From IMG/VR virus record IMGVR_UViG_3300033076_000210, positions 1 through 64,000 of that record: a stretch of DNA of 64,000 nt. One strand, written 5' to 3'. The notes under the pieces were generated by a model. That model saw only the letters and a program-made list of their open reading frames with translations, was not told where the DNA came from and ran no database searches. Positions 4,513-22,905 of the stretch are shown one piece after another; positions within the stretch are counted from its first letter, which is position 1; each line of letters begins with the position of its first letter. The translations under genes and the position numbers were made by a program. The DNA is from a virus (Duplodnaviria > Caudoviricetes).

Positions 4513-6459
4513 TTAGATGATTTTTTGGCTTGCTGCCTCGGCTGCTGTGTACTGTCCAGAAGTGATCGAAATTTGCGGGCTTGGAACTACATCATCTACT
4601 ATGATGTCTGTACCCACTCCAGCGTTGCTTAACAACACCTGATTTCGAGCTTCGCGCATGGATGAAATAATAGCTTGCCCGCCCTGAGTTGATGTATTAG
4701 CAACAGATTCAAAGAACCAAGCAGCACCGCCAACTGAGGTGGCCAGGCCATATTGTCCAATATCAGTTGCTAACGATGTTGGCTGAATGCCCGGCACTAA
4801 ATCAGCAAATACTATGTTTGCCTGTGCTTGGGTCGATTGTTCAAGTGCTATCTGGGCAGCAATATTAGACCACGCGGAATTTGCCACAGTAACATTCGAA
4901 CTATTGTTAGCAATAATGTTACCAATCAATGAATACGCCGCAGGGATCAATCCTATGCCCGGTGTGCCAGGGCCAGTGAATGCTACGTTTCCGTCGCTAT
5001 AAGTTCCTTCTCCCGGGAGCCCACCCGGGATAACAATTGAATTTGCAACATCACCGTAGACACCGTCGATGACATTTTGCATCACTGTATAAACACCTGT
5101 AGTACTGTCAGTCAATGTATTCAATGTACCAGTGGATGTCATCGAAGTTAATATTGTATTAACCGTTGATAAATTTCCGTTAACTACCCAACCGCCTGCT
5201 GATCCTATTAAGTCCGCTAACAGTAATGTTCCGTTTTCGCCTGTGCCTGACCCGTAGGTGTTTAAAAAATAGTTACTAACATCAGTAGGCAACGGAGTAG
5301 TTAATTCATTGAGTAAATTTAATCCCTTGTTGCTTTCTAGTTCTAGTGTGGCTGCACCTAGGAATGGCGTTGTTGAACTAAAAATAGATTTAACCTGTTC
5401 TAGGCCGGCCTGGATAGCTTTGTTGGCCAAGGCCCAGTCTGGCGGAATAATTTTCTTCAACTGACTGTAGGTATTCTCAGCAGTCTGGTATCCTTGTAAT
5501 GGTGCCAGCACATTACTAGGTAATGTTGTTGCAAGGTTAGTGTTGACCTGGCCGGCCGAATTGATATAAATTCCACGAAGTCCGTTTACAGTTGGTGCCG
5601 TTAACGTGTTAAAACTGGTAGGGAACATCTTTACAGGATTTAGTAAATCAGCTAATGTAGTTAATCCTGCTGTTGATACTTTTAAAATGTACAAAATCTG
5701 TGCAAGCTGATTACCAGTTATGGTAGACATCACGTCAAACACAATTTTTTGTTCTTCGTCTGTCATTGTTATGTCGGACAGATTATACAATGTATCAGAG
5801 CTAATACCAGCATTTAACAATGCAGTATTAATAAATGCAGTTCCGCCGGATTGAAAATATATTTGTCGTAGTAGTGCCTGCGGACTGCCAAGATTAGGCA
5901 AGTTAGCAAGATCAATGCTATGTCCTAGGGCAACCAAGTCGGCTCCGAAATCTCGATAGGCCAATGAGATTTGACTCAGTCCACCAGTTATTGTGTTATC
6001 TGCAGATGTATATGTAGCGTTAGATGCAGTGTTGTTGGCGTTAACTGCACTGTTAATTAATTGATTAGTAACAGATATGTAACCATCTGCTTGGGCAAAC
6101 ACTTGTTCAAACTTGCCAAGGTCACCGCTGCCCATGATATTGTTGATTTCAGTTGATACTAAATTGGTGAATCCACCAATAGAGGTATTACCAAGACTAC
6201 CAATATATGCAGACGGGACTGCGTTAGTTAATGAAGGGAATACGTTGCCGGCTAAATTGCAGAGACTTGTTTCTACACTACCCGACAATACTGAATTCCC
6301 TGTAGATTTAACATTGGCAAATTGCACTACCGCAGCAAGACTGTTGTAGCTGGATAAATTGTTCAGGGCATTGGCATTGGCAGCGATAGGCACCCCTCCG
6401 ATATTGCCAAGGATCCCTGCGGCTGCGATTAAATTAACAGAACTTAGATATCCGGCCAT
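4513..6459 (-). CDS. putative virion (baseplate/tail-associated) protein
   Basis: 648 aa, N/S/T/G-rich, coupled to the PAAR gene. Confidence 0.55.
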   Translation of the reverse strand: MAGYLSSVNLIAAAGILGNIGGVPIAANANALNNLSSYNSLAAVVQFANVKSTGNSVLSGSVETSLCNLAGNVFPSLTNAVPSAYIGSLGNTSIGGFTNLVSTEINNIMGSGDLGKFEQVFAQADGYISVTNQLINSAVNANNTASNATYTSADNTITGGLSQISLAYRDFGADLVALGHSIDLANLPNLGSPQALLRQIYFQSGGTAFINTALLNAGISSDTLYNLSDITMTDEEQKIVFDVMSTITGNQLAQILYILKVSTAGLTTLADLLNPVKMFPTSFNTLTAPTVNGLRGIYINSAGQVNTNLATTLPSNVLAPLQGYQTAENTYSQLKKIIPPDWALANKAIQAGLEQVKSIFSSTTPFLGAATLELESNKGLNLLNELTTPLPTDVSNYFLNTYGSGTGENGTLLLADLIGSAGGWVVNGNLSTVNTILTSMTSTGTLNTLTDSTTGVYTVMQNVIDGVYGDVANSIVIPGGLPGEGTYSDGNVAFTGPGTPGIGLIPAAYSLIGNIIANNSSNVTVANSAWSNIAAQIALEQSTQAQANIVFADLVPGIQPTSLATDIGQYGLATSVGGAAWFFESVANTSTQGGQAIISSMREARNQVLLSNAGVGTDIIVDDVVPSPQISITSGQYTAAEAASQKII

Positions 6460-6758
6460 TACTTTGCCAATACATTAGTGCTGCCACCGGCACGTTTATG
6501 AGTTCTGCAACTGTCTTTTGCGCCAGTTAGCACCAGAGGTTGCCCATTGGCAAAAACCGTGGTTGAATTACCGGAGACTGCAACTACACCTATACAGTGT
6601 TGTGGTTGTTTTTTGCTACAGCCCACGTGCGGCGTAAACTTAGTAAATGGTTTCAATGCCGGACGACCATTGATAAGAACATTTGTGTGGCCGGGCCCAA
6701 GCGCAACTCCGCCACCAGAGTTAAAATCTCCCACACGCTGAACTGGTTTTCCCGGCAT
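6459..6758 (-). CDS. PAAR-repeat spike-tip protein (T4 gp5.4-like)
   Basis: PVQRVGD, INGRPA and ANGQPL repeats with H/C metal ligands. Confidence 0.8.
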   Translation of the reverse strand: MPGKPVQRVGDFNSGGGVALGPGHTNVLINGRPALKPFTKFTPHVGCSKKQPQHCIGVVAVSGNSTTVFANGQPLVLTGAKDSCRTHKRAGGSTNVLAK

Positions 6759-7079: not shown

Positions 7080-7331
7080 TTATGTTGCGGTGCCAACTTT
7101 GGCTGCGAAATCTTCTGCTGTCATTCCTGCAAGACCTTGATAGCCCCCGGGAATATGTTGTGTTCCGTTGTAAATCTGTGGTACTGATCGGAAACCTGCA
7201 TCCATAAGCATCTGACGTGCATCAGTGTCCACAGAAATATCTATAGATTCGTAAGCAACTCCTCTGCTTTCGAGTAACTGTTTTGCCATATCGCAATACG
7301 GGCAGTTGGGTTTCGAATATACTTTAATCAT
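7080..7331 (-). CDS. grx: glutaredoxin
   Basis: CPYC active site, SVPQI, GGY; downstream of nrdAB. Confidence 0.92.
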   Translation of the reverse strand: MIKVYSKPNCPYCDMAKQLLESRGVAYESIDISVDTDARQMLMDAGFRSVPQIYNGTQHIPGGYQGLAGMTAEDFAAKVGTAT

Positions 7332-7581: not shown

Positions 7582-7865
7582 TTCAGTGTCCACACTACAA
7601 TATCATCTCGGTTGGTAAATCCCCACCACTCTTTTTTATCATCTGAGCTGCTGCTGTAACAACGAACCTGACCTTTCAGTGTTGAGTTACACCACTGATA
7701 ATAGTCTGATTTAAATCTGTGGACGCCAATTGGTTTAACACACACAAACCATTGCGATGGAAGTTCCTGGCCTTCATCGGGGATCCACAGCGGACTAGCA
7801 TCATTGCCCAACCCCTCTTGCAATGCATTAAAGGTATGGGCAAACTCCTTGCGGGTTAAGATCAT
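7572..7865 (-). CDS. hypothetical protein (C-terminal LKW motif)
   Basis: Ends WTLKWM; coupled to nrdB stop. Confidence 0.7.
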   Translation of the reverse strand: MILTRKEFAHTFNALQEGLGNDASPLWIPDEGQELPSQWFVCVKPIGVHRFKSDYYQWCNSTLKGQVRCYSSSSDDKKEWWGFTNRDDIVVWTLKWM

Positions 7866-8962
7866 AGTTCCGGTAGTGCGTCGTAATCTAAGTTATCCGA
7901 CATAACGCCGATAACATAGTTAGTTGATTCGTTCTCCTGCAATGCAGTTTGTTTGTTGCTGGTGTTAACGTGTTTGTTGAACCAAGGAATCGGCGTTGAC
8001 TTAGGTGCCGGCGATTGATACTTGATACCAATTTCTTTGAGCGCACCCACTGCGGTGTAGTCCACAAAGTCTTTTAGAATTTGTGCGTTGAGACCAATCA
8101 CTGGTCCAAACTTGAACAAGTAATCTGCCCAGGCCTTTTCTTCTCCGATTACTTCCATGTATAGTTGATACACTTCAGCTTCGCACTGTTGTTTGATCTT
8201 TGCAAAGCGAGGATCTTCCTTGACCACTTGATTGATCAACCAGGCTGTCCAGTCCTTGTGTAGGATTTCGTCTTGAAGAATCAAGCTAATAATGTTACCA
8301 TTGCCAATAAAGATACGATTCTCAACCATTGCTAGACTTGTAGCAAAAGATACCATGAAGCGGAACGCTTCTAGAGCATAGCTTGCATGCAGAGCTAGGT
8401 AAATTGCTTTGAGATGTTCTTCTTCACTGACTTCAATGCCGAGTTCTACCTGGCAGTTAATCTTGTGCAGAGCATCGTAGTAATTGCCTACTGAACTGGC
8501 CATGTCCACAATCTCTTGAGTATCATGAATGGTGTTGAATACGTCCTTGGGCACGTTGTAGATGTTACGGATAATGTGACTGTAACTGCGGCTATGAATG
8601 TTTGTTTCAAAGAAGCCCCAGTTATACATCAATGATTCTAGTTCTGGGATAGAACAAACAGGTGTAAACACCTGTGTTGGGCCACGACCTTGTAAACTAT
8701 CCAATGCTGTTTGGCGTAACAAGTTTGATGTAAAGATATGCTTGACGGTGTCGCTTGCATCCTTGAAGTCTTGACTGTCCTTGGTCAACGAAACTTCCTC
8801 AGGTACCCAAAAGAATCCTCTAGCTTCTTGCTCAAACTTTGTTAGCTTGTTATATTTGACTTCTTCAAATCGCTGAATAGTCACTGGCCCTGCTGGGTCC
8901 AAGAACATCTTGCGACTCAGGTAGTCTGTCTTGGTGTTTAGATTGTATTGTGCTTTGCTCAT
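7862..8962 (-). CDS. nrdB: ribonucleotide reductase class Ia beta subunit
   Basis: FFWVPEE, LDSLQ, ETNIHSRSY (radical Tyr), LEAFRF, DEILH, QENE..NY; start MSKAQY with ATGA overlap. Confidence 0.96.
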   Translation of the reverse strand: MSKAQYNLNTKTDYLSRKMFLDPAGPVTIQRFEEVKYNKLTKFEQEARGFFWVPEEVSLTKDSQDFKDASDTVKHIFTSNLLRQTALDSLQGRGPTQVFTPVCSIPELESLMYNWGFFETNIHSRSYSHIIRNIYNVPKDVFNTIHDTQEIVDMASSVGNYYDALHKINCQVELGIEVSEEEHLKAIYLALHASYALEAFRFMVSFATSLAMVENRIFIGNGNIISLILQDEILHKDWTAWLINQVVKEDPRFAKIKQQCEAEVYQLYMEVIGEEKAWADYLFKFGPVIGLNAQILKDFVDYTAVGALKEIGIKYQSPAPKSTPIPWFNKHVNTSNKQTALQENESTNYVIGVMSDNLDYDALPEL

Positions 8963-10146
8963 AGTTTGCTCGTTATCATTTTTGTAACTGCTTTTGCAGT
9001 AACTGGACCAAGGGTCCACCCTAGATGACCATGTCCAGTATTGTAGAACACATTCATGACTTTGTTACTCTGTTTAACAATAGGCATCATGTTAGGAGTC
9101 ATGGGTCGTAGACATGCCCAGCTGGTATAATCATGTGTGTTTATGTTTGGAAAGTTAGTACGTACCCAACTTAACAAAGGGTCAATTCGATCTTTTCGAA
9201 TATCGTAGTTTTCACCAGCTAACTCTGCGGTGCCTGCTACACGGAAACGATTGCCCAGACTTGCTGTAACAATCTTGGCTTGATCATCTAATAGACTAAC
9301 ATGCGGTAGGTGTCGAGGATCAACGTTGTTAATAGTAATACTATAACCCTTGACTGGGTAAATGTCAATGGTGTCTCCTACTTCTTTGCCGATAGCAACA
9401 GAACCGACACCTGCACATACCACAACATTGTCAAACCCCTTAGACAAATACTCCATACCGTATGTTTCAATCACGGACGAATTGTATTTAAATTCTACGT
9501 TATACTTGTTAACCAATACTTTTTCAAGTTCATGACAAAACTTGTGGATGTCGCCTGTCCAGTCAGTGGAGGTCCAAGCGCCACCCACAATACCATCAAC
9601 TTTATCAAGTGCAGGGTCTAATGCTTTGGTTTGCATTGGGCCTAGAATATCCCAGTCAAGTCCATTGCTATTGTAAATTTCTTTGGCTTGCTTTGCAGAG
9701 TCAAAATACGCTGCATCTTTGTAGAAGTGTAATATCCCTGAAGCTGTTTGGTCAAACTTCAAATCTTCTTCGCGGATAATCTCTGCATACAAGTTACGAG
9801 ATTCAATTCCCATCTGGATTGTGGCTTCTGTATTCTTTTTGTAATCACCGTTAGCAGTATGATACAAGAACTTTGCAATCCATTTCCACTGTGCAATATC
9901 AAGCCTTGGACGAATCAAGAGAGGCGCATCTTTGGTGAACATCCACTTGAGACCTTTCTTGACGTTGGCCCACGTGGTCCAAACTTCCGAATTGCTCACT
10001 GAGATTTGGCCGCCATTGGCGTAACTAGTTCGCATAGCAGCATGCGGCTCTTGTTCAAACACAGTTACCCGGTGGCCTTCGCGAGCAAGATAATATGCTG
10101 TTGTAATACCGGTAATGCCGGCGCCAATTACTGCAACTGATTTCAT
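8959..10146 (-). CDS. dadA: D-amino acid dehydrogenase (FAD-dependent, DAO family)
   Basis: GAGITG, TSYANGGQIS, PVKGYS, RVAGTAE, WACLRPMTP, NTGHGHLGWTLG motifs. Confidence 0.9.
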   Translation of the reverse strand: MKSVAVIGAGITGITTAYYLAREGHRVTVFEQEPHAAMRTSYANGGQISVSNSEVWTTWANVKKGLKWMFTKDAPLLIRPRLDIAQWKWIAKFLYHTANGDYKKNTEATIQMGIESRNLYAEIIREEDLKFDQTASGILHFYKDAAYFDSAKQAKEIYNSNGLDWDILGPMQTKALDPALDKVDGIVGGAWTSTDWTGDIHKFCHELEKVLVNKYNVEFKYNSSVIETYGMEYLSKGFDNVVVCAGVGSVAIGKEVGDTIDIYPVKGYSITINNVDPRHLPHVSLLDDQAKIVTASLGNRFRVAGTAELAGENYDIRKDRIDPLLSWVRTNFPNINTHDYTSWACLRPMTPNMMPIVKQSNKVMNVFYNTGHGHLGWTLGPVTAKAVTKMITSKL

Positions 10147-12464
10147 AATTTGCAGCTTTCGCAATCATCTTCCATCATTTCGATATTGTGTGGTAAGTCT
10201 ACCAACGCTTCATCTTCTTTTTGTTTGCTACCAGCTTTGTTGATCAAGCTGTAGTAGAATGTCTTGATGCCCCAGTGATGTGCTAACATCAAGTTCTTGG
10301 CAATCAATGTAGTTGGCACTTTGCGATCTGCAAAGTGAGCAGGATTGTAGAATGTGTTAGTACTGATAGACTGATCAACATAGGCTTGAATAACTGCCGC
10401 AGTCTTCAAGTAACCATCACAATCTTGTTGTGCCCACATCAGTTGATATTTGTTTTTCAACTTGTGATACTCTGGAACAACTTGTGTTAGTGAACCTGCT
10501 TTGGATTCTTTAACAGTAATCAAGCTCATTGGCATTTCGATACCATTGGTTGAGTTGATAACAACTGAGCTAGATTCAACCGGAGCCACGGCCATCAGTG
10601 TGGCATTACGCACACCATATGCTCGCATATCAGCACGTAGCCCTTCCCAGTTTAGTTCAGGATCAAAATTTGTAAGCTCATTGACACCGGATGCACGGCG
10701 CTCCCAGGGGAACACGCCTCTTCCATACCACGTCTTGTCGCTATCCTTACAACGGCCGCGTTCTTTTGCAAGTTCCACGGTTGCTTCAGTAAGGTAATAA
10801 GCCTGGTGTTCCATCCAGGACTTAACTTCGGCCAAAGCGTCTGCGTCTCCATAGCTAAAGCTACGTTTGGCGTGCCAGTAAGCAAGGTTTGTAATACCGA
10901 TACCAAGTGGCTGAATCTCATCATTGGACAACTTGCTTTGGATTGAGAGGAAGTCCTGATAGTCGAGGATATTACAGAGTGAGCGTTGCAAAATACGGCA
11001 AGCACGGCGCATGTCCTCAGGATGGCGGAACGCACCCCAGTTGATTGAGCCCAAGGTGCATAAAGCAATACGACCCTCGGCGTCATCCAGGCGCTTGAAA
11101 GGTCTTGTAGGAAGGAGAATTTCACAGCAAAGATTTGATTGATAGATAGTGTGATACTCGGGGTCAAACGGACCCTGGTTCATCACGTTGTCGACAAATA
11201 CTAGATAAATGCGACCAGTGTCTGTTCGCTCCTTAAGAATGCCAGATTTGAAGACTTCTTCAGCAGAGATAGTTTTCTTCCGGAGATCAGATCTAGCTTC
11301 ATATTTGACATAAAGATCTTCAAATAGCTTAGTGTCGCGGTAAAATGCTTCATATAAGTCCGGTACCTCATTGGGGTCAAAGAAAGTGATATTTTCTTTG
11401 TTTTTAAATCGACGCCAGAAAAAAGCAGATAATACGACGCCGTAGTCCATGTGCCGGACTCGGGTTTCTTCGGTTCCCTGATTGTTCTTGAGCACAATGA
11501 GATCATCGAATTGATGATGCCAGATGGGATAGAAAACCGTAGCACTAGCATTGCGAATACCTCCTTGACTGCATGAACGTAAATCTCCGAACCATTTCTT
11601 TAAAAAGGGAATCATACCTGTGTGCATGATCTCGCCACCACGAATAGGCGAACCCAACGGACGTAAGCGACCAATCTCTAAACCAATGCCAGCACGTTTG
11701 CTGGCATACTTGGCCATCATCTCACCAGATGCGAAAATACTATCGAGATCATCATCGCTACGGATAAGAACACAACTACTGAACTGCTTAGTAGGAGTCC
11801 CCAGACCAGCAAGCACAGGAGTAGCGAGAGTGAAAAGGCCGTCCGAGGCGGCATTGTAGTATTCCTTGATATAGCGCATTCTTGCGCTGTTGGGTTCTTC
11901 CTTGTGGAATACCGTCGCCGCAGCGACTATGTATCGGATCTGTGGTGTTTCATAAATTTCTTTGGTAGCACGATTGCGAACAAGATACTTTTCGATTAGC
12001 TGCTCAATGGCTGCATAAGAATACTGCTCGTCCTTGGAGTGGTCCAACATGTCGTTCATACGGTTCCAGTCGTCTTGTGTATACCACTGCAACAACTCCG
12101 GTGTGTATAAACCAACTTCTACGTTTTTCTTAACGATTTCATATAGATGTGGAACTTCGTAATCACCGTATACGTCTTTGCGAAGCATGCTTAAACGCTG
12201 CTTGCCTGCTACATACTGATAGTTTACGTGTCCTACGTCGGGATTGGCTTCTACATCAATTAGATCAACAATTGCTCGCAGTGTAATACCGTCAATTTCT
12301 GCTGTGGTGATCCCATCGTAAAAATGCAACTGTGTTCTTATTTCAATCATTGACTGACTAACGTCTGCAATTCCCTGACACACTTTGGCAATTTGACTTT
12401 GCCATTTTTCCAAATTTAAAGGCTCTTTGCGCCCGCTTCTCTTCACTACTGTAATTTGCGTCAT
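10143..12464 (-). CDS. nrdA: ribonucleotide reductase class Ia alpha subunit
   Basis: N-terminal ATP cone (VVKRSG), QFSSCVL, SNLCCEI, KTFYY, C-terminal CESC. Confidence 0.97.
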   Translation of the reverse strand: MTQITVVKRSGRKEPLNLEKWQSQIAKVCQGIADVSQSMIEIRTQLHFYDGITTAEIDGITLRAIVDLIDVEANPDVGHVNYQYVAGKQRLSMLRKDVYGDYEVPHLYEIVKKNVEVGLYTPELLQWYTQDDWNRMNDMLDHSKDEQYSYAAIEQLIEKYLVRNRATKEIYETPQIRYIVAAATVFHKEEPNSARMRYIKEYYNAASDGLFTLATPVLAGLGTPTKQFSSCVLIRSDDDLDSIFASGEMMAKYASKRAGIGLEIGRLRPLGSPIRGGEIMHTGMIPFLKKWFGDLRSCSQGGIRNASATVFYPIWHHQFDDLIVLKNNQGTEETRVRHMDYGVVLSAFFWRRFKNKENITFFDPNEVPDLYEAFYRDTKLFEDLYVKYEARSDLRKKTISAEEVFKSGILKERTDTGRIYLVFVDNVMNQGPFDPEYHTIYQSNLCCEILLPTRPFKRLDDAEGRIALCTLGSINWGAFRHPEDMRRACRILQRSLCNILDYQDFLSIQSKLSNDEIQPLGIGITNLAYWHAKRSFSYGDADALAEVKSWMEHQAYYLTEATVELAKERGRCKDSDKTWYGRGVFPWERRASGVNELTNFDPELNWEGLRADMRAYGVRNATLMAVAPVESSSVVINSTNGIEMPMSLITVKESKAGSLTQVVPEYHKLKNKYQLMWAQQDCDGYLKTAAVIQAYVDQSISTNTFYNPAHFADRKVPTTLIAKNLMLAHHWGIKTFYYSLINKAGSKQKEDEALVDLPHNIEMMEDDCESCKL

Positions 12465-12474
12465 TTCTACTCTT

Positions 12475-12900
12475 TTAATTGTATTTTTGTTGCACTTGGG
12501 TTTGAGTCAAGTGCTGTTTGATTTCTAACTTGTGGTTGGTATTTACGACAGTGTCGGTGGCCCAATTCAATATATATTTTCTTTTGCAAACTAGGACTAA
12601 ATTGTCACCGTCTTGGGTTAAAACTAGTTCTGCATCGGTTAACTCAGGATGGTCCAGCAAGCTAATAGTATACAACATTCCTAGTCCTTTTGCAACATCA
12701 CAGTAGAAGTTGTCGTTCAAAAGTTCCCAGGGATCTGGCCAAGTTTCTCGATCGTCCCAGTGTAAATGGTATGCACGCCACGGTGCATGTCCCCACCAGG
12801 TGTTGATTTGAGCTAACGCAGTTTCTGCGTCTAGGTGTTGTATTTGTTTTCGTAGGTTTGCCCAGGCGTCAAGCCTGAGTTGAAAGGTTTTTGGCCACAT
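12475..12900 (-). CDS. hypothetical protein, possibly transglutaminase-like cysteine-protease (BTLCP) fold
   Basis: WPDPWEL...YCDVAKG...LVLV...YILN resembles the BTLCP pattern. Confidence 0.5.
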   Translation of the reverse strand: MWPKTFQLRLDAWANLRKQIQHLDAETALAQINTWWGHAPWRAYHLHWDDRETWPDPWELLNDNFYCDVAKGLGMLYTISLLDHPELTDAELVLTQDGDNLVLVCKRKYILNWATDTVVNTNHKLEIKQHLTQTQVQQKYN

Positions 12901-14495
12901 TAAACGCGGAATTTAGATATTGAATAAGCAAGAGATCCATCAATACTGGTATTAGTACTAGTGTATGCAATACTTACGACATCCCCGACCTGGGTAGCAG
13001 AAAAGATGATACCTACAGTTTCGTTTTCAACGTAGTCATCATCATAGGTTAATGTACCGCCACCTGTTGGTACAACTCTCAATGTGCCATGGCGCACACC
13101 AGTATCACGGGTGATACTGTAATTAATCGACACAGATCGATACAGTGTAGCATCAAATGTATAGAATGTTTCATCTGCTGTGCCATTTAGCAATGTTGTA
13201 ATCGGTTCTGTTTCAAGAACGTTGGGTCCAAGTTGAATTAGTTTACCGTTAACGAATCCAATACTGCCAGTTGTCCCAAGATCAACTCTAGGATAAATTG
13301 TAGCATAATCATCGCTGCGCTCAAACAAATCGCCAACACTGATATTATTCTCATTTGCAATTTTAATAACAGATGTCGCAGGACTTAGTGTTCCATTAAA
13401 GTGATTACCAACATCATAGAAAATATTGTATCCAGTGGCATTTAGTTCTACTGCACCGATATCAATACCTTCGGCATAGATGTTGTTGAAAAAATTATGA
13501 ACTATTCTGAATCCATTGGGCCCACCATTGGTTAGAGTATCTGTGCCCAACACAATGCCTTGATACAATGTATCAAATTTACCATTGCTGATTGTAACGC
13601 CTTGTGCGCCATCATTGGTGTTAATACCAAATGTTGTACCACTAAACCCACAACGATCAAATGTAATGTTGCTACAAATTAATGCTGGTGTGCTAGAAAA
13701 TCTAACGCCTGACATATTAACTGAGTCAGTAGTTAAATTTGATTGTGTCAATGGCCCCATGAAATTAACATTAGTAAATGTACAGTCAGTGGCATCCTCA
13801 ATTAAAAATACATCGCCGTAATTTTCTTCAACTGTTCTAAACCCTAGATTGTCGATAGTAATATATTTCGGAGTAGTTGCACCATTGGCGCCAATATTAG
13901 CACCAGTCTGTTGTAAACTATCTGCTGTTCTTGCTACATAAGCCCGAAACGCACTATCATCACCAGCGGCCATTTGTATCACTGAATTATCCGGGCCTTC
14001 GCCATACAGTGTGGCGTAAGTAGGTATATCAATGGTTTGATTTACTAGGTATACCCCAGCTGGGAAAAATAACGCACGACGAATTTGTGGGTTGACTTCT
14101 CGGCAATACAGTTGATACAATGCTCTGTTAATTGCATCAGTGTCGTCAGTTACTCCATCGCCTACTGCACCAAAGTCTTTAACTGATGCCCATTGATCCA
14201 GCCAGCTTTGTAGACTTTGCGAAACAGGTGTGTTTGCAGTTGGTCCTGTTTGTGCAGCATATCCTGTTGCAGCAATGCCGCTGTATGTATATGTAGTTTG
14301 GAATGATAAAATATCACTAAACTCAGTGAGAATTTCTGTATTCCCCACTGTAGGCGCACCATCGGCCAATGTACCATTGCCAATGAACAATCTACGCTCG
14401 TCTATGCTCCAACCTAATTCTGCACCGGCAAGCTGCGGTAAATCTATTTGTAAACCTTTACGGTTTGTTATTTGTGAAATCTGTACAATAGCCAC
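12900..14495 (-). CDS. tail fibre/tailspike-like protein with right-handed beta-helix
   Basis: N-terminal LAGAELGW..DERRLFIGNG attachment motif; SVKDFGAVGDGVTDDT...FFPAGVY pectate-lyase-3-like motif; GTG start. Confidence 0.8.
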   Translation of the reverse strand: MAIVQISQITNRKGLQIDLPQLAGAELGWSIDERRLFIGNGTLADGAPTVGNTEILTEFSDILSFQTTYTYSGIAATGYAAQTGPTANTPVSQSLQSWLDQWASVKDFGAVGDGVTDDTDAINRALYQLYCREVNPQIRRALFFPAGVYLVNQTIDIPTYATLYGEGPDNSVIQMAAGDDSAFRAYVARTADSLQQTGANIGANGATTPKYITIDNLGFRTVEENYGDVFLIEDATDCTFTNVNFMGPLTQSNLTTDSVNMSGVRFSSTPALICSNITFDRCGFSGTTFGINTNDGAQGVTISNGKFDTLYQGIVLGTDTLTNGGPNGFRIVHNFFNNIYAEGIDIGAVELNATGYNIFYDVGNHFNGTLSPATSVIKIANENNISVGDLFERSDDYATIYPRVDLGTTGSIGFVNGKLIQLGPNVLETEPITTLLNGTADETFYTFDATLYRSVSINYSITRDTGVRHGTLRVVPTGGGTLTYDDDYVENETVGIIFSATQVGDVVSIAYTSTNTSIDGSLAYSISKFRV

Positions 14496-21762: not shown

Positions 21763-22905
21763 TTAAAGGTATCGCTTGTACCATGTTAGAAACTCTGGAT
21801 ACGTGTCTCTCCAATTTTGGTTTCTAATTTGATCATGGGTGTTTAGATGATCGAGCATTTTTCTAATAGCAGATTCTTGATCTGTTGGTGCGTTTAGAAT
21901 ACGATTATGCACCCAATGCCCAGGCGGAACACTTAATAATGCATGTTCCTTGTATTCAGAGCTCATTGCAGCAAATGAGTACTCTCCCATACAGTCGTGA
22001 TAATTTATAGTTATTTTGTCACCATATATTGTCTCAGAGAAATTATCTTGTTGCCATTGGTCAAATTGTGTTATCCAAGCGGCTGTTAATACTCCCACTG
22101 TGCGCTCAACTCTAAGCAATCCGTTGTGAGGCAAATTAGTTCGAAACCATTCAAGATTATCAGTCATTTCTTTCCAATTTGCAGGCCATCTTTGATATTC
22201 CATCCTTGGCCCCAAATCATCCAAGCTGAAATAAATTTCCAACATCTTAAACTTTTCCCAAAATTTTAGAACAGTGTCCGACACTCGTGTAGTTGCATTT
22301 GAATGATACCATAACGATATCTGACTCAGATCTACTGTGTCTTGCAATTTTTCTAATACACGTAAATGTGTAAGGGACAAAAGCGGCTCCCCGCCCTGGA
22401 AATGAATTTGTTTAATATCATGTGTGGGCACTGTAGATAGCAAGTCAACTATGTTGCTATCAGTGGCCCGCACTTTAAATTTTTTACTGGATTCAAATTT
22501 ATCTTTAGTTTCTACGTGTCTCCAAAAGGTGCTTAATTCTGGACCGCATATTCTACACGCCAGATTGCAACTAAAATCAACTTGTAAATCTAATTCAATC
22601 ACTGATTGAGGGTTTTGCCAGTGCGTTCCTAGTCTGTCGTTCCAACTTTGGCGACGACTATAATTTCCGTTATTTTCAACTCGACGACATGCCGAACAGT
22701 TATCAGGGAGTTCGTGCCCTTTTAAATTTTCTATTCTTTCTTTTTGCAAATTATCGTTTAGCCAAAATTCATCCTGAATGTTTGAAGTAACTTCGTATTC
22801 AGTTCCGTACAAACAGCAAGGTTTGGCCATCCATTTTCTCTTAGCGGTTTGATATTTTAACCACATACCTCCTTGCAAGTCAGCACAGTATTTAGAATTA
22901 TCCAT
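21763..22905 (-). CDS. radical SAM protein with N-terminal Twitch/SPASM-like cysteines
   Basis: CNLACRIC (CxxxCxxC), GGEPLL, N-terminal PCC...CxxC. Confidence 0.88.
   Translation of the reverse strand: MDNSKYCADLQGGMWLKYQTAKRKWMAKPCCLYGTEYEVTSNIQDEFWLNDNLQKERIENLKGHELPDNCSACRRVENNGNYSRRQSWNDRLGTHWQNPQSVIELDLQVDFSCNLACRICGPELSTFWRHVETKDKFESSKKFKVRATDSNIVDLLSTVPTHDIKQIHFQGGEPLLSLTHLRVLEKLQDTVDLSQISLWYHSNATTRVSDTVLKFWEKFKMLEIYFSLDDLGPRMEYQRWPANWKEMTDNLEWFRTNLPHNGLLRVERTVGVLTAAWITQFDQWQQDNFSETIYGDKITINYHDCMGEYSFAAMSSEYKEHALLSVPPGHWVHNRILNAPTDQESAIRKMLDHLNTHDQIRNQNWRDTYPEFLTWYKRYL

Follow-up and report, generated by a model that had tools for sequence, protein, structure and literature searches.

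A DadA-like flavoenzyme gene between nrdA and nrdB of an uncultured jumbo phage as a probable mobile auxiliary metabolic gene

The stretch of DNA analyzed in this study (hereafter the window) corresponds to positions 1-64,000 of a virus record of 93.9 kb from IMG/VR (IMGVR_UViG_3300033076_000210). CheckV estimates this record to be 28% complete, and at this completeness a length of 93.9 kb therefore indicates a jumbo phage of approximately 335 kb. On the minus strand of the window, the genes for the two subunits of a class Ia ribonucleotide reductase (RNR) are separated by a gene for a flavin adenine dinucleotide (FAD)-dependent oxidoreductase which resembles the D-amino acid dehydrogenase DadA and is referred to as DAO in the following. 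The large subunit gene nrdA (10143..12464; 773 amino acids) was recognized by the Pfam domains ATP-cone, Ribonuc_red_lgN and Ribonuc_red_lgC (360 bits), the small subunit gene nrdB (7862..8962, ATG at 8962; 366 amino acids) by PF00268 (142 bits). Between them, the DAO gene (8959..10146, ATG at 10146) forms an intact open reading frame (ORF) for 395 amino acids, of which residues 4-389 are covered by PF01266 (208 bits). An earlier note on this DNA had described a full-length DadA-like flavoenzyme at this position with overlapping stop and start codons at both of its ends, and both statements hold. The overlaps can be read directly from the letters as ATGA at 10143..10146, where the TGA stop codon of nrdA lies over the ATG of the DAO gene, and as ATGA at 8959..8962, where the TGA of the DAO gene lies over the ATG of nrdB.

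In a profile search, the DAO protein was matched best by two NCBIfam models for D-amino acid dehydrogenases, NF009074 (PRK12409; 456 bits, cut-off 494) and, in second rank, NF001933 (332 bits, cut-off 383). The third rank was held by the model for the glycine oxidase ThiO (TIGR02352) with 109.8 bits against a cut-off of 250.8; all remaining models scored far lower, with sarcosine oxidase models staying below 35 bits. As both D-amino acid dehydrogenase scores are near-misses of their cut-offs, the protein appears, judged by its profile scores, to be DadA-like but not an equivalog of NF009074 or NF001933. A ThiO-type function, which the earlier note had considered as the outcome speaking against its proposal, is not borne out by the score. 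The similarity to E. coli K-12 DadA amounts to 30% identity over 402 columns of a collinear full-length alignment (BLASTP, residues 4-394 versus 3-401, E 4e-64), and both proteins exhibit the motifs YP-KGYS, LRPMTP and NTGHG-LGWT as well as the N-terminal FAD-binding GxGxxG motif. The glycines of the latter (G8, G10 and G13) are invariant among 61 homologues, as are S41, N44, P264, K266, G267, R302, R347 and G376. In the glycine oxidase of Geobacillus, the counterpart of R347 is the Arg of the IRP motif, which we take to be the arginine that binds the carboxylate of the substrate (Arg302 in ThiO of B. subtilis), and this would fit with an alpha-amino acid as substrate. The AlphaFold2 model of the DAO protein is of high confidence (pLDDT 96.2, pTM 0.94), and Foldseek assigned it to the two-domain DAO/GR2 fold that is also found in DadA, with matches to the beta subunit of sarcosine oxidase, glycine oxidase, proline dehydrogenase and D-arginine dehydrogenase. 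No solved structure of a close homologue was found among the sequences of the PDB, whose glycine oxidases match only the C-terminal half of the DAO protein (E 1e-12). Sequence and fold matches in the PDB confirm the superfamily, but they do not discriminate between substrates. Unlike DadA from E. coli, the phage enzyme is devoid of a C-terminal tail of approximately 30 amino acids and of a dadX partner gene, scores below the curated cut-off, belongs to a separate viral clade and is encoded by a jumbo phage of lytic type.

Relatives of the DAO gene are encoded by 143 contigs of IMG/VR, the best 80 of which are 53-76% identical to the protein of the window, and by at least 120 metagenome protein clusters (69-95% identity). 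The nearest cellular genes, which are stand-alone DadA-like genes of SAR86, Pelagibacterales and other marine Alphaproteobacteria, share 42-52% identity with it over the whole length. To our knowledge, no substrate has been characterized for any of these enzymes. A match of 60% identity in a metagenome-assembled genome of the Crocinitomicaceae exhibits a phage-type neighborhood and is probably a mis-binned phage contig. The comparison with cellular DadA proteins that had been proposed in the earlier note was carried out with two trees, a FastTree of 175 rows and an IQ-TREE mixture-model tree of 66 rows, both rooted with E. coli DadA. In these, all viral DAO proteins form, together with four metagenome representatives, one single clade (FastTree 99, SH-aLRT 98), which stands in an unresolved polytomy beside the clades of SAR86-type, Pelagibacterales-type and other alphaproteobacterial enzymes. 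One of the four metagenome representatives, P0128 (L129:325-2117), is a divergent member of this clade (48% identity) from a short phage-like contig, and its gene overlaps the end of thyX. The median ratio of non-synonymous to synonymous substitution rates (dN/dS) over 50 pairs of viral DAO genes was 0.086; in the single pair for which both genes were measurable, NrdB exhibited a value of 0.055. Because of the single viral clade, the wide distribution and the low dN/dS, the DAO gene is regarded as an old resident of this phage group under purifying selection and not a recent accident or a pseudogene. It is, as the earlier note had supposed, a phage-encoded gene for a cellular-like metabolic enzyme, and it is neither restricted to this genome nor free of selection. 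While host-like metabolic enzymes encoded by phages are an already known phenomenon, no published description of DadA in a lytic phage was found in the full-text literature, and this widespread viral gene has apparently remained undescribed so far.

The ATGA overlaps demonstrate a tight packing of the three genes and make it probable that DAO is translated together with the RNR subunits, as had been proposed earlier. A strong Shine-Dalgarno motif ahead of the DAO start codon was not present at the nrdA/DAO junction, and the ATGA-type junction between the DAO gene and nrdB recurs in most other loci with the order nrdA-DAO-nrdB. What does not follow from the overlaps is a sign specific for RNR. 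Some form of overlap occurs at 46 of the 101 same-strand junctions of the contig (4 nt in 18, 1 nt in 16 and other lengths in 12 of them), so that stop-start overlap is the default packing in this genome. For this reason the ATGA coupling conveys no special tie to RNR, and a DAO gene residing at this junction would be read along with the RNR genes simply because the genome packs its genes with overlapping stop and start codons. A near-consensus sigma-70-like site within the DAO gene (9368-9340, 11/12 matches) was considered as a new promoter for nrdB and rejected, as the site results from the codons for the conserved motif IDIYPVKGYS and is not enriched in the copies located between nrdA and nrdB.

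The genomic position of the DAO gene was compared across relatives by gene calls in all loci, clustering and annotation of recurrent neighbors. This synteny survey, which the earlier note had suggested, revealed that the order nrdA-DAO-nrdB recurs in 13 contigs, all of them fragments that represent 9-28% of a genome, but that the position is not fixed. In approximately 35 contigs, which include the most basal branches of the DAO tree, the gene is located between a queD/PTPS-like gene and a gene for a queE-like radical SAM protein, near folE and genes for a cytidylyltransferase, a glycosyltransferase and an epimerase. In approximately 11 further contigs it follows a series of nrdB, glutaredoxin, two other genes and a 5′-nucleotidase (NT5C), and precedes genes for an Hc1-like protein and NifU. 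Additional contexts are a position between PTPS-like and KDO8P-synthase-like genes (L063-L067, L076, L080), beside the gene for serine hydroxymethyltransferase (SHMT; L019, L023, L081), after thyX (L129), and beside genes for S-adenosylhomocysteine (AdoHcy) hydrolase (L058), TerC and a porin (L079, L083), a Bax1-I membrane protein (L061) or a MazG-like protein (L045). Two complete relatives are of particular value in this regard, namely G001 (352 kb; NrdA 86% and DAO 72% identical to the window) and G002 (355 kb; 69% and 64%). In both of them nrdA and nrdB are directly adjacent and the DAO gene is found elsewhere, in the case of G001 approximately 118 kb away in the queD/queE context. As these genomes keep nrdA and nrdB together with DAO at another site, the gene is not linked to RNR, and the functional tie suggested by the earlier note is not supported by this comparison. 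The cellular homologues are stand-alone genes with unrelated neighbors, among them genes for an FTR1 permease, a HAD hydrolase, a DCC1-like protein and a glyoxalase; the 39 cellular neighborhoods examined gave no functional clue.

Two of these contexts exhibit features of their own. The cluster of folE, queD-like, DAO and queE-like genes, which also includes those for the cytidylyltransferase, a GT1 glycosyltransferase and the epimerase, was found in L022, L040, L012 and approximately 30 other loci as well as in G001 (G001:C1:212018-217600). This cluster possibly represents an unusual 7-deazaguanine or pterin pathway. In the 5′-nucleotidase context, a histone H1-like Hc1 protein of 66 amino acids (L029:3709-3909; PF07432, 69 bits; cluster 25 in approximately 17 loci) is encoded directly 3′ of the DAO gene, with a NifU-like scaffold protein being encoded a few genes further.

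The content of the nrdA|nrdB junction varies as much as the position of the DAO gene. Across relatives, the slot is occupied by DAO, by a gene for a class II aldolase in L050, L053, L071 and L074, by DAO together with this aldolase in L044, and by a 2-oxoglutarate (2OG)-Fe(II) oxygenase gene plus DAO in L069. In L081, an SHMT fragment at the contig edge is followed by DAO, with nrdA itself lying outside the locus, while in L004 the class II aldolase gene directly precedes nrdB. In L006 (L006:1391-3085), genes for an Fe/Mn superoxide dismutase (SOD), an HNH_3 homing-type endonuclease and a class II aldolase stand in a row, and some relatives, including G001 and G002, have nothing in the slot. 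When presence of DAO in the slot was mapped on the NrdB tree, at least six changes were required, two of which are forced by well-supported branches. An approximately unbiased (AU) test on the DAO tree rejected a single clade of slot-borne alleles (p 1e-9). Furthermore, the DAO proteins of L030 (slot) and of L038/G002 (queD context) are sisters, whereas their NrdB proteins belong to different clades. The disagreement of both trees, the AU rejection and the number of changes on the NrdB tree together indicate repeated insertion or exchange of the DAO ORF. What moves is in essence the ORF by itself: the DAO stop codon overlaps the ATG of the next gene in most contexts, and no conserved flanking non-coding sequence was visible at the DAO loci. 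The nrdA|nrdB junction thus appears to be a hypervariable cargo slot between conserved genes, in which most viral DAO copies do not reside and which holds unrelated cargo in sister phages. The 216-amino-acid class II aldolase/MtnB-like gene behaves as a second mobile cargo. Its best NCBIfam match, which is weak, is methylthioribulose-1-phosphate dehydratase, and it is located at nrdA|nrdB in some phages and beside DAO in the queD context in others (L053, L071, L074, L050, L044, L034, L041, L043, L051).

With regard to RNR itself, the NrdB of the window is 40% identical to E. coli NrdB and contains equivalents of D84, E115, H118, Y122, E204, E238, H241 and Y356, which comprise the Asp, Glu and His ligands, the radical tyrosine and the C-terminal tyrosine; it is by these residues an ordinary class Ia small subunit. 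Such proteins self-assemble their cofactor from Fe(II) and O2. Nothing suggests that this NrdB needs a flavoenzyme of the DAO fold. As a separate observation, NrdB has one additional residue between its counterparts of E115 (Glu) and H118 (His) of E. coli (FETNIHS versus SET-IHS). The codons are located at 8570-8600 of the window, and the same residues are encoded in L001, L002 and L003. This extra residue is common to the NrdB proteins of the phages BUDD, RSP15 and Moby, but not to those of L019 or E. coli; with it, the metal site would depart from its usual ExxH spacing unless the alignment shifts.

Taken together, the DAO gene probably represents a mobile auxiliary metabolic gene for a functional, free-standing FAD-dependent amino-acid dehydrogenase of the DadA type. 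It would be carried by uncultured jumbo phages from aquatic habitats that form a family with genomes of approximately 350 kb. What we infer for substrate, electron acceptor and physiological benefit is that the enzyme, by homology, would oxidize a small alpha-amino acid to the imino and 2-oxo acid with release of ammonium, the substrate most likely being D-alanine or another neutral D-amino acid, possibly also glycine. The electrons of the FAD would pass to an acceptor, which in the case of DadA is a quinone, and then enter the respiratory chain, so that the infected cell would gain carbon skeletons, nitrogen and respiratory electrons during phage replication. The location between nrdA and nrdB would be positional and not functional: in several lineages the gene may have arrived at this site or been swapped into it, and it would be expressed along with whichever nucleotide-metabolism block holds it. 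No evidence for a functional link between DAO and RNR emerged from this analysis.

Several points weigh against this reading of the gene. The score for NF009074 is below the curated cut-off, and we know of no characterized enzyme, cellular or viral, from this subclade, which makes the specificity for D-amino acids an extrapolation. An alanine racemase gene (dadX) was not found among the neighbors of DAO in the window, the 80 viral and the 39 cellular loci (a search restricted to neighbors), nor does any other D-amino-acid gene stand beside DAO in phages or cellular relatives; a dadX partner is, however, not universal in the DadA family. Since the record represents no more than 28% of the genome, partner genes could be located outside it. 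In addition, many of the independent neighborhoods are related to nucleotides or DNA (nrdAB, NT5C, thyX, SHMT, queDE, MazG-like), and this could be a real link and not just the consequence of shared early or middle expression.

Five other explanations were weighed, which are considered here in falling order of likelihood. That fold and chemistry are retained while the substrate is glycine, an N-methyl amino acid, an opine or another small amine, with DAO acting in stand-alone catabolism or detoxification, appears unlikely, yet less so than the other four. The narrowly missed DadA equivalog cut-off would fit with it, as would the nearest solved folds (sarcosine oxidase beta, glycine oxidase and proline dehydrogenase) and the fact that the gene abuts that of SHMT, which has glycine as by-product, in L019, L023 and L081. 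On the other hand, the lead of the DadA models over ThiO exceeds 300 bits (NF009074), and the scores for sarcosine oxidase models remain below 35 bits. The adjacency to SHMT is limited to these three contigs and SHMT is absent from the complete genomes G001 and G002, for which reason the idea of glycine as substrate based on SHMT linkage was rejected. In addition to the five, a recruitment of DAO to DNA-precursor or DNA-modification metabolism, where it would act on glycine or another amino-acid-derived intermediate instead of being a generic catabolic addition, is judged quite unlikely; it would account for the repeated independent insertion at the nrdA|nrdB, queD|queE, thyX, SHMT and 5′-nucleotidase junctions. 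A role in DNA-precursor or DNA metabolism as the cause of the recurrent placement beside nucleotide genes, for example by removal of glycine to pull the one-carbon flux of SHMT and thymidylate synthesis or by supply of ammonium for nucleotides, is distinctly unlikely. It draws on the independent contexts beside nrdA/nrdB, the 5′-nucleotidase gene, thyX, SHMT, MazG-like and queD/queE-like genes. Such regions are, however, also simply where cargo gathers, other copies stand beside genes for AdoHcy hydrolase, TerC and a porin, or Bax1-I, and the cellular relatives are stand-alone genes. We know of no pathway that needs this chemistry.

A role as tailoring enzyme of base hypermodification, either of 7-deazaguanine or of amino-acid-decorated thymidine as in the phages M6 and PaMx11, could be derived from the approximately 35 contigs with DAO between queD-like and queE-like genes near folE, a context that holds a basal position in the DAO tree. 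In addition, thymidine hypermodification does involve flavin-dependent lyases from the DAO superfamily (PMC8989533, PMC11472151). This role is nevertheless considered very unlikely. The gene for an enzyme of a given pathway would be expected to remain near the other genes of that pathway, but DAO is far from queDE in many phages, including that of the window, and the queD-like and queE-like proteins score far below the cut-offs of their families. A preQ0 DNA pathway, as could be assumed from folE, queD and queE, was rejected since no match for QueC or the Pfam model TGT was found in G000-G003, where a divergent DpdA could have escaped the model. Furthermore, tblastn of DAO against 50,697 phage records (E 1e-5) yielded no homologue from an isolated phage, the only matches being four records labelled Acinetobacter and annotated as dadA (32-44% identity), sequence matches in the PDB comprise only glycine oxidases and similar enzymes, and the identity to stand-alone cellular enzymes is approximately 50%. 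DadA-type enzymes consume D-alanine, as known from dadAX of E. coli, and depletion of D-alanine (and D-glutamate) might therefore starve peptidoglycan synthesis and thereby weaken the wall or arrest growth of the host. Location of the gene in a nucleotide-metabolism block would be expected to bring about expression before lysis. However, no lysis genes are linked to DAO in any context, a racemase of the host would refill the D-alanine pool, and the conservation across diverse contexts lends no specific support, so that this idea is highly improbable. The least credible explanation, hardly to be expected in our view, is that DAO serves RNR directly by providing the metal-radical cofactor of NrdB with reductant or reactive oxygen while it is assembled or maintained. 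It could refer to the ATGA coupling at both ends of the gene, to the order nrdA-DAO-nrdB in 13 contigs with several NrdB lineages, and to the SOD gene in the same slot of L006. The supply of reductant for this cofactor had also been suggested by the earlier note, but an NrdB with the ordinary class Ia set of ligands, its radical tyrosine and the capability of self-assembly with Fe(II) and O2 argues against it. Close relatives with an 81-86% identical RNR have no DAO at this locus, slot-borne DAO alleles are not a clade, and the DAO fold is neither flavodoxin-like as in NrdI nor ferredoxin-like as in YfaE. No small protein of the NrdI flavodoxin or YfaE ferredoxin type was recognized 3′ of nrdB.

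Besides the RNR genes, the neighbors of DAO in the window are genes for a glutaredoxin and for structural proteins. The glutaredoxin (7080..7331, minus strand; 83 amino acids; PF00462, 70 bits) belongs to a cluster (cluster 4) which is kept 3′ of nrdB in most related loci; glutaredoxin is the usual reductant partner of RNR. On the other side, 5′ of nrdA, a conserved ORF for 141 amino acids (12475..12900, minus strand) without any match among the Pfam, PHROG and NCBIfam profiles has homologues that also stand before nrdA in related loci, including G001 and G002. A PAAR-motif protein of 99 amino acids is encoded 3′ of the RNR block on the same strand (6459-6758), and a pectate-lyase-like tailspike or depolymerase of 531 amino acids just 5′ of the run formed by the 141-amino-acid ORF and nrdA (12900-14495). 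It is unusual for virion genes to be mixed with genes of nucleotide metabolism in a single co-oriented block.

The window furthermore encodes a large terminase (TerL), which is 52% identical to that of the Pseudomonas jumbo phage PA5oct, a tail tube protein, a UvsX-like recombinase, and DnaB-like and other helicases. A gene for a radical SAM protein of 380 amino acids (21763-22905) is located directly beside that of the DnaB-like helicase. NrdA is 60% identical to that of the Xanthomonas phage BUDD and 53-57% to those of the Ralstonia phage RSP15 and the Stenotrophomonas Moby group. In these isolated relatives nrdA either adjoins nrdB or is set apart from it by an ORF for 57-59 amino acids, and none of BUDD, RSP15 and Moby contains a DAO gene. 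A megablast search with the locus against isolated phages gave no match.

Phage T4 carries mobE between nrdA and nrdB, and the likeness to this slot drawn by the earlier note is apt. The same RNR junction holds variable, laterally exchanged inserts in both cases, as do the hyperplastic regions of T4-like phages, and the HNH endonuclease in the slot of L006 is a direct parallel and may drive the exchange of cargo at the junction. In contrast to T4, the cargo described here is a metabolic enzyme and not a nuclease, and DAO possesses neither a nuclease domain nor flanking non-coding DNA. The flavin-dependent lyases of thymidine hypermodification in the Pseudomonas phages M6 and PaMx11 (gp47; PMC8989533, PMC11472151) are likewise encoded by phages and belong to the same broad superfamily of flavoenzymes. 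The DAO of the window is, however, much closer to cellular DadA, and no hypermodification genes adjoin it.

For this group of phages, these results illustrate that junctions within conserved gene pairs such as nrdA|nrdB and queD|queE act as landing pads, at which single-ORF cargo is swapped among jumbo phages without flanking non-coding DNA. In lakes and oceans, D-amino acids from peptidoglycan make up a large pool of the dissolved organic nitrogen, and no paper describing a viral route from D-amino acids to ammonium was found in the literature. If DAO is an active D-amino-acid dehydrogenase, it would provide a virus-encoded route from this pool to ammonium, 2-oxo acids and respiratory electrons during infection.

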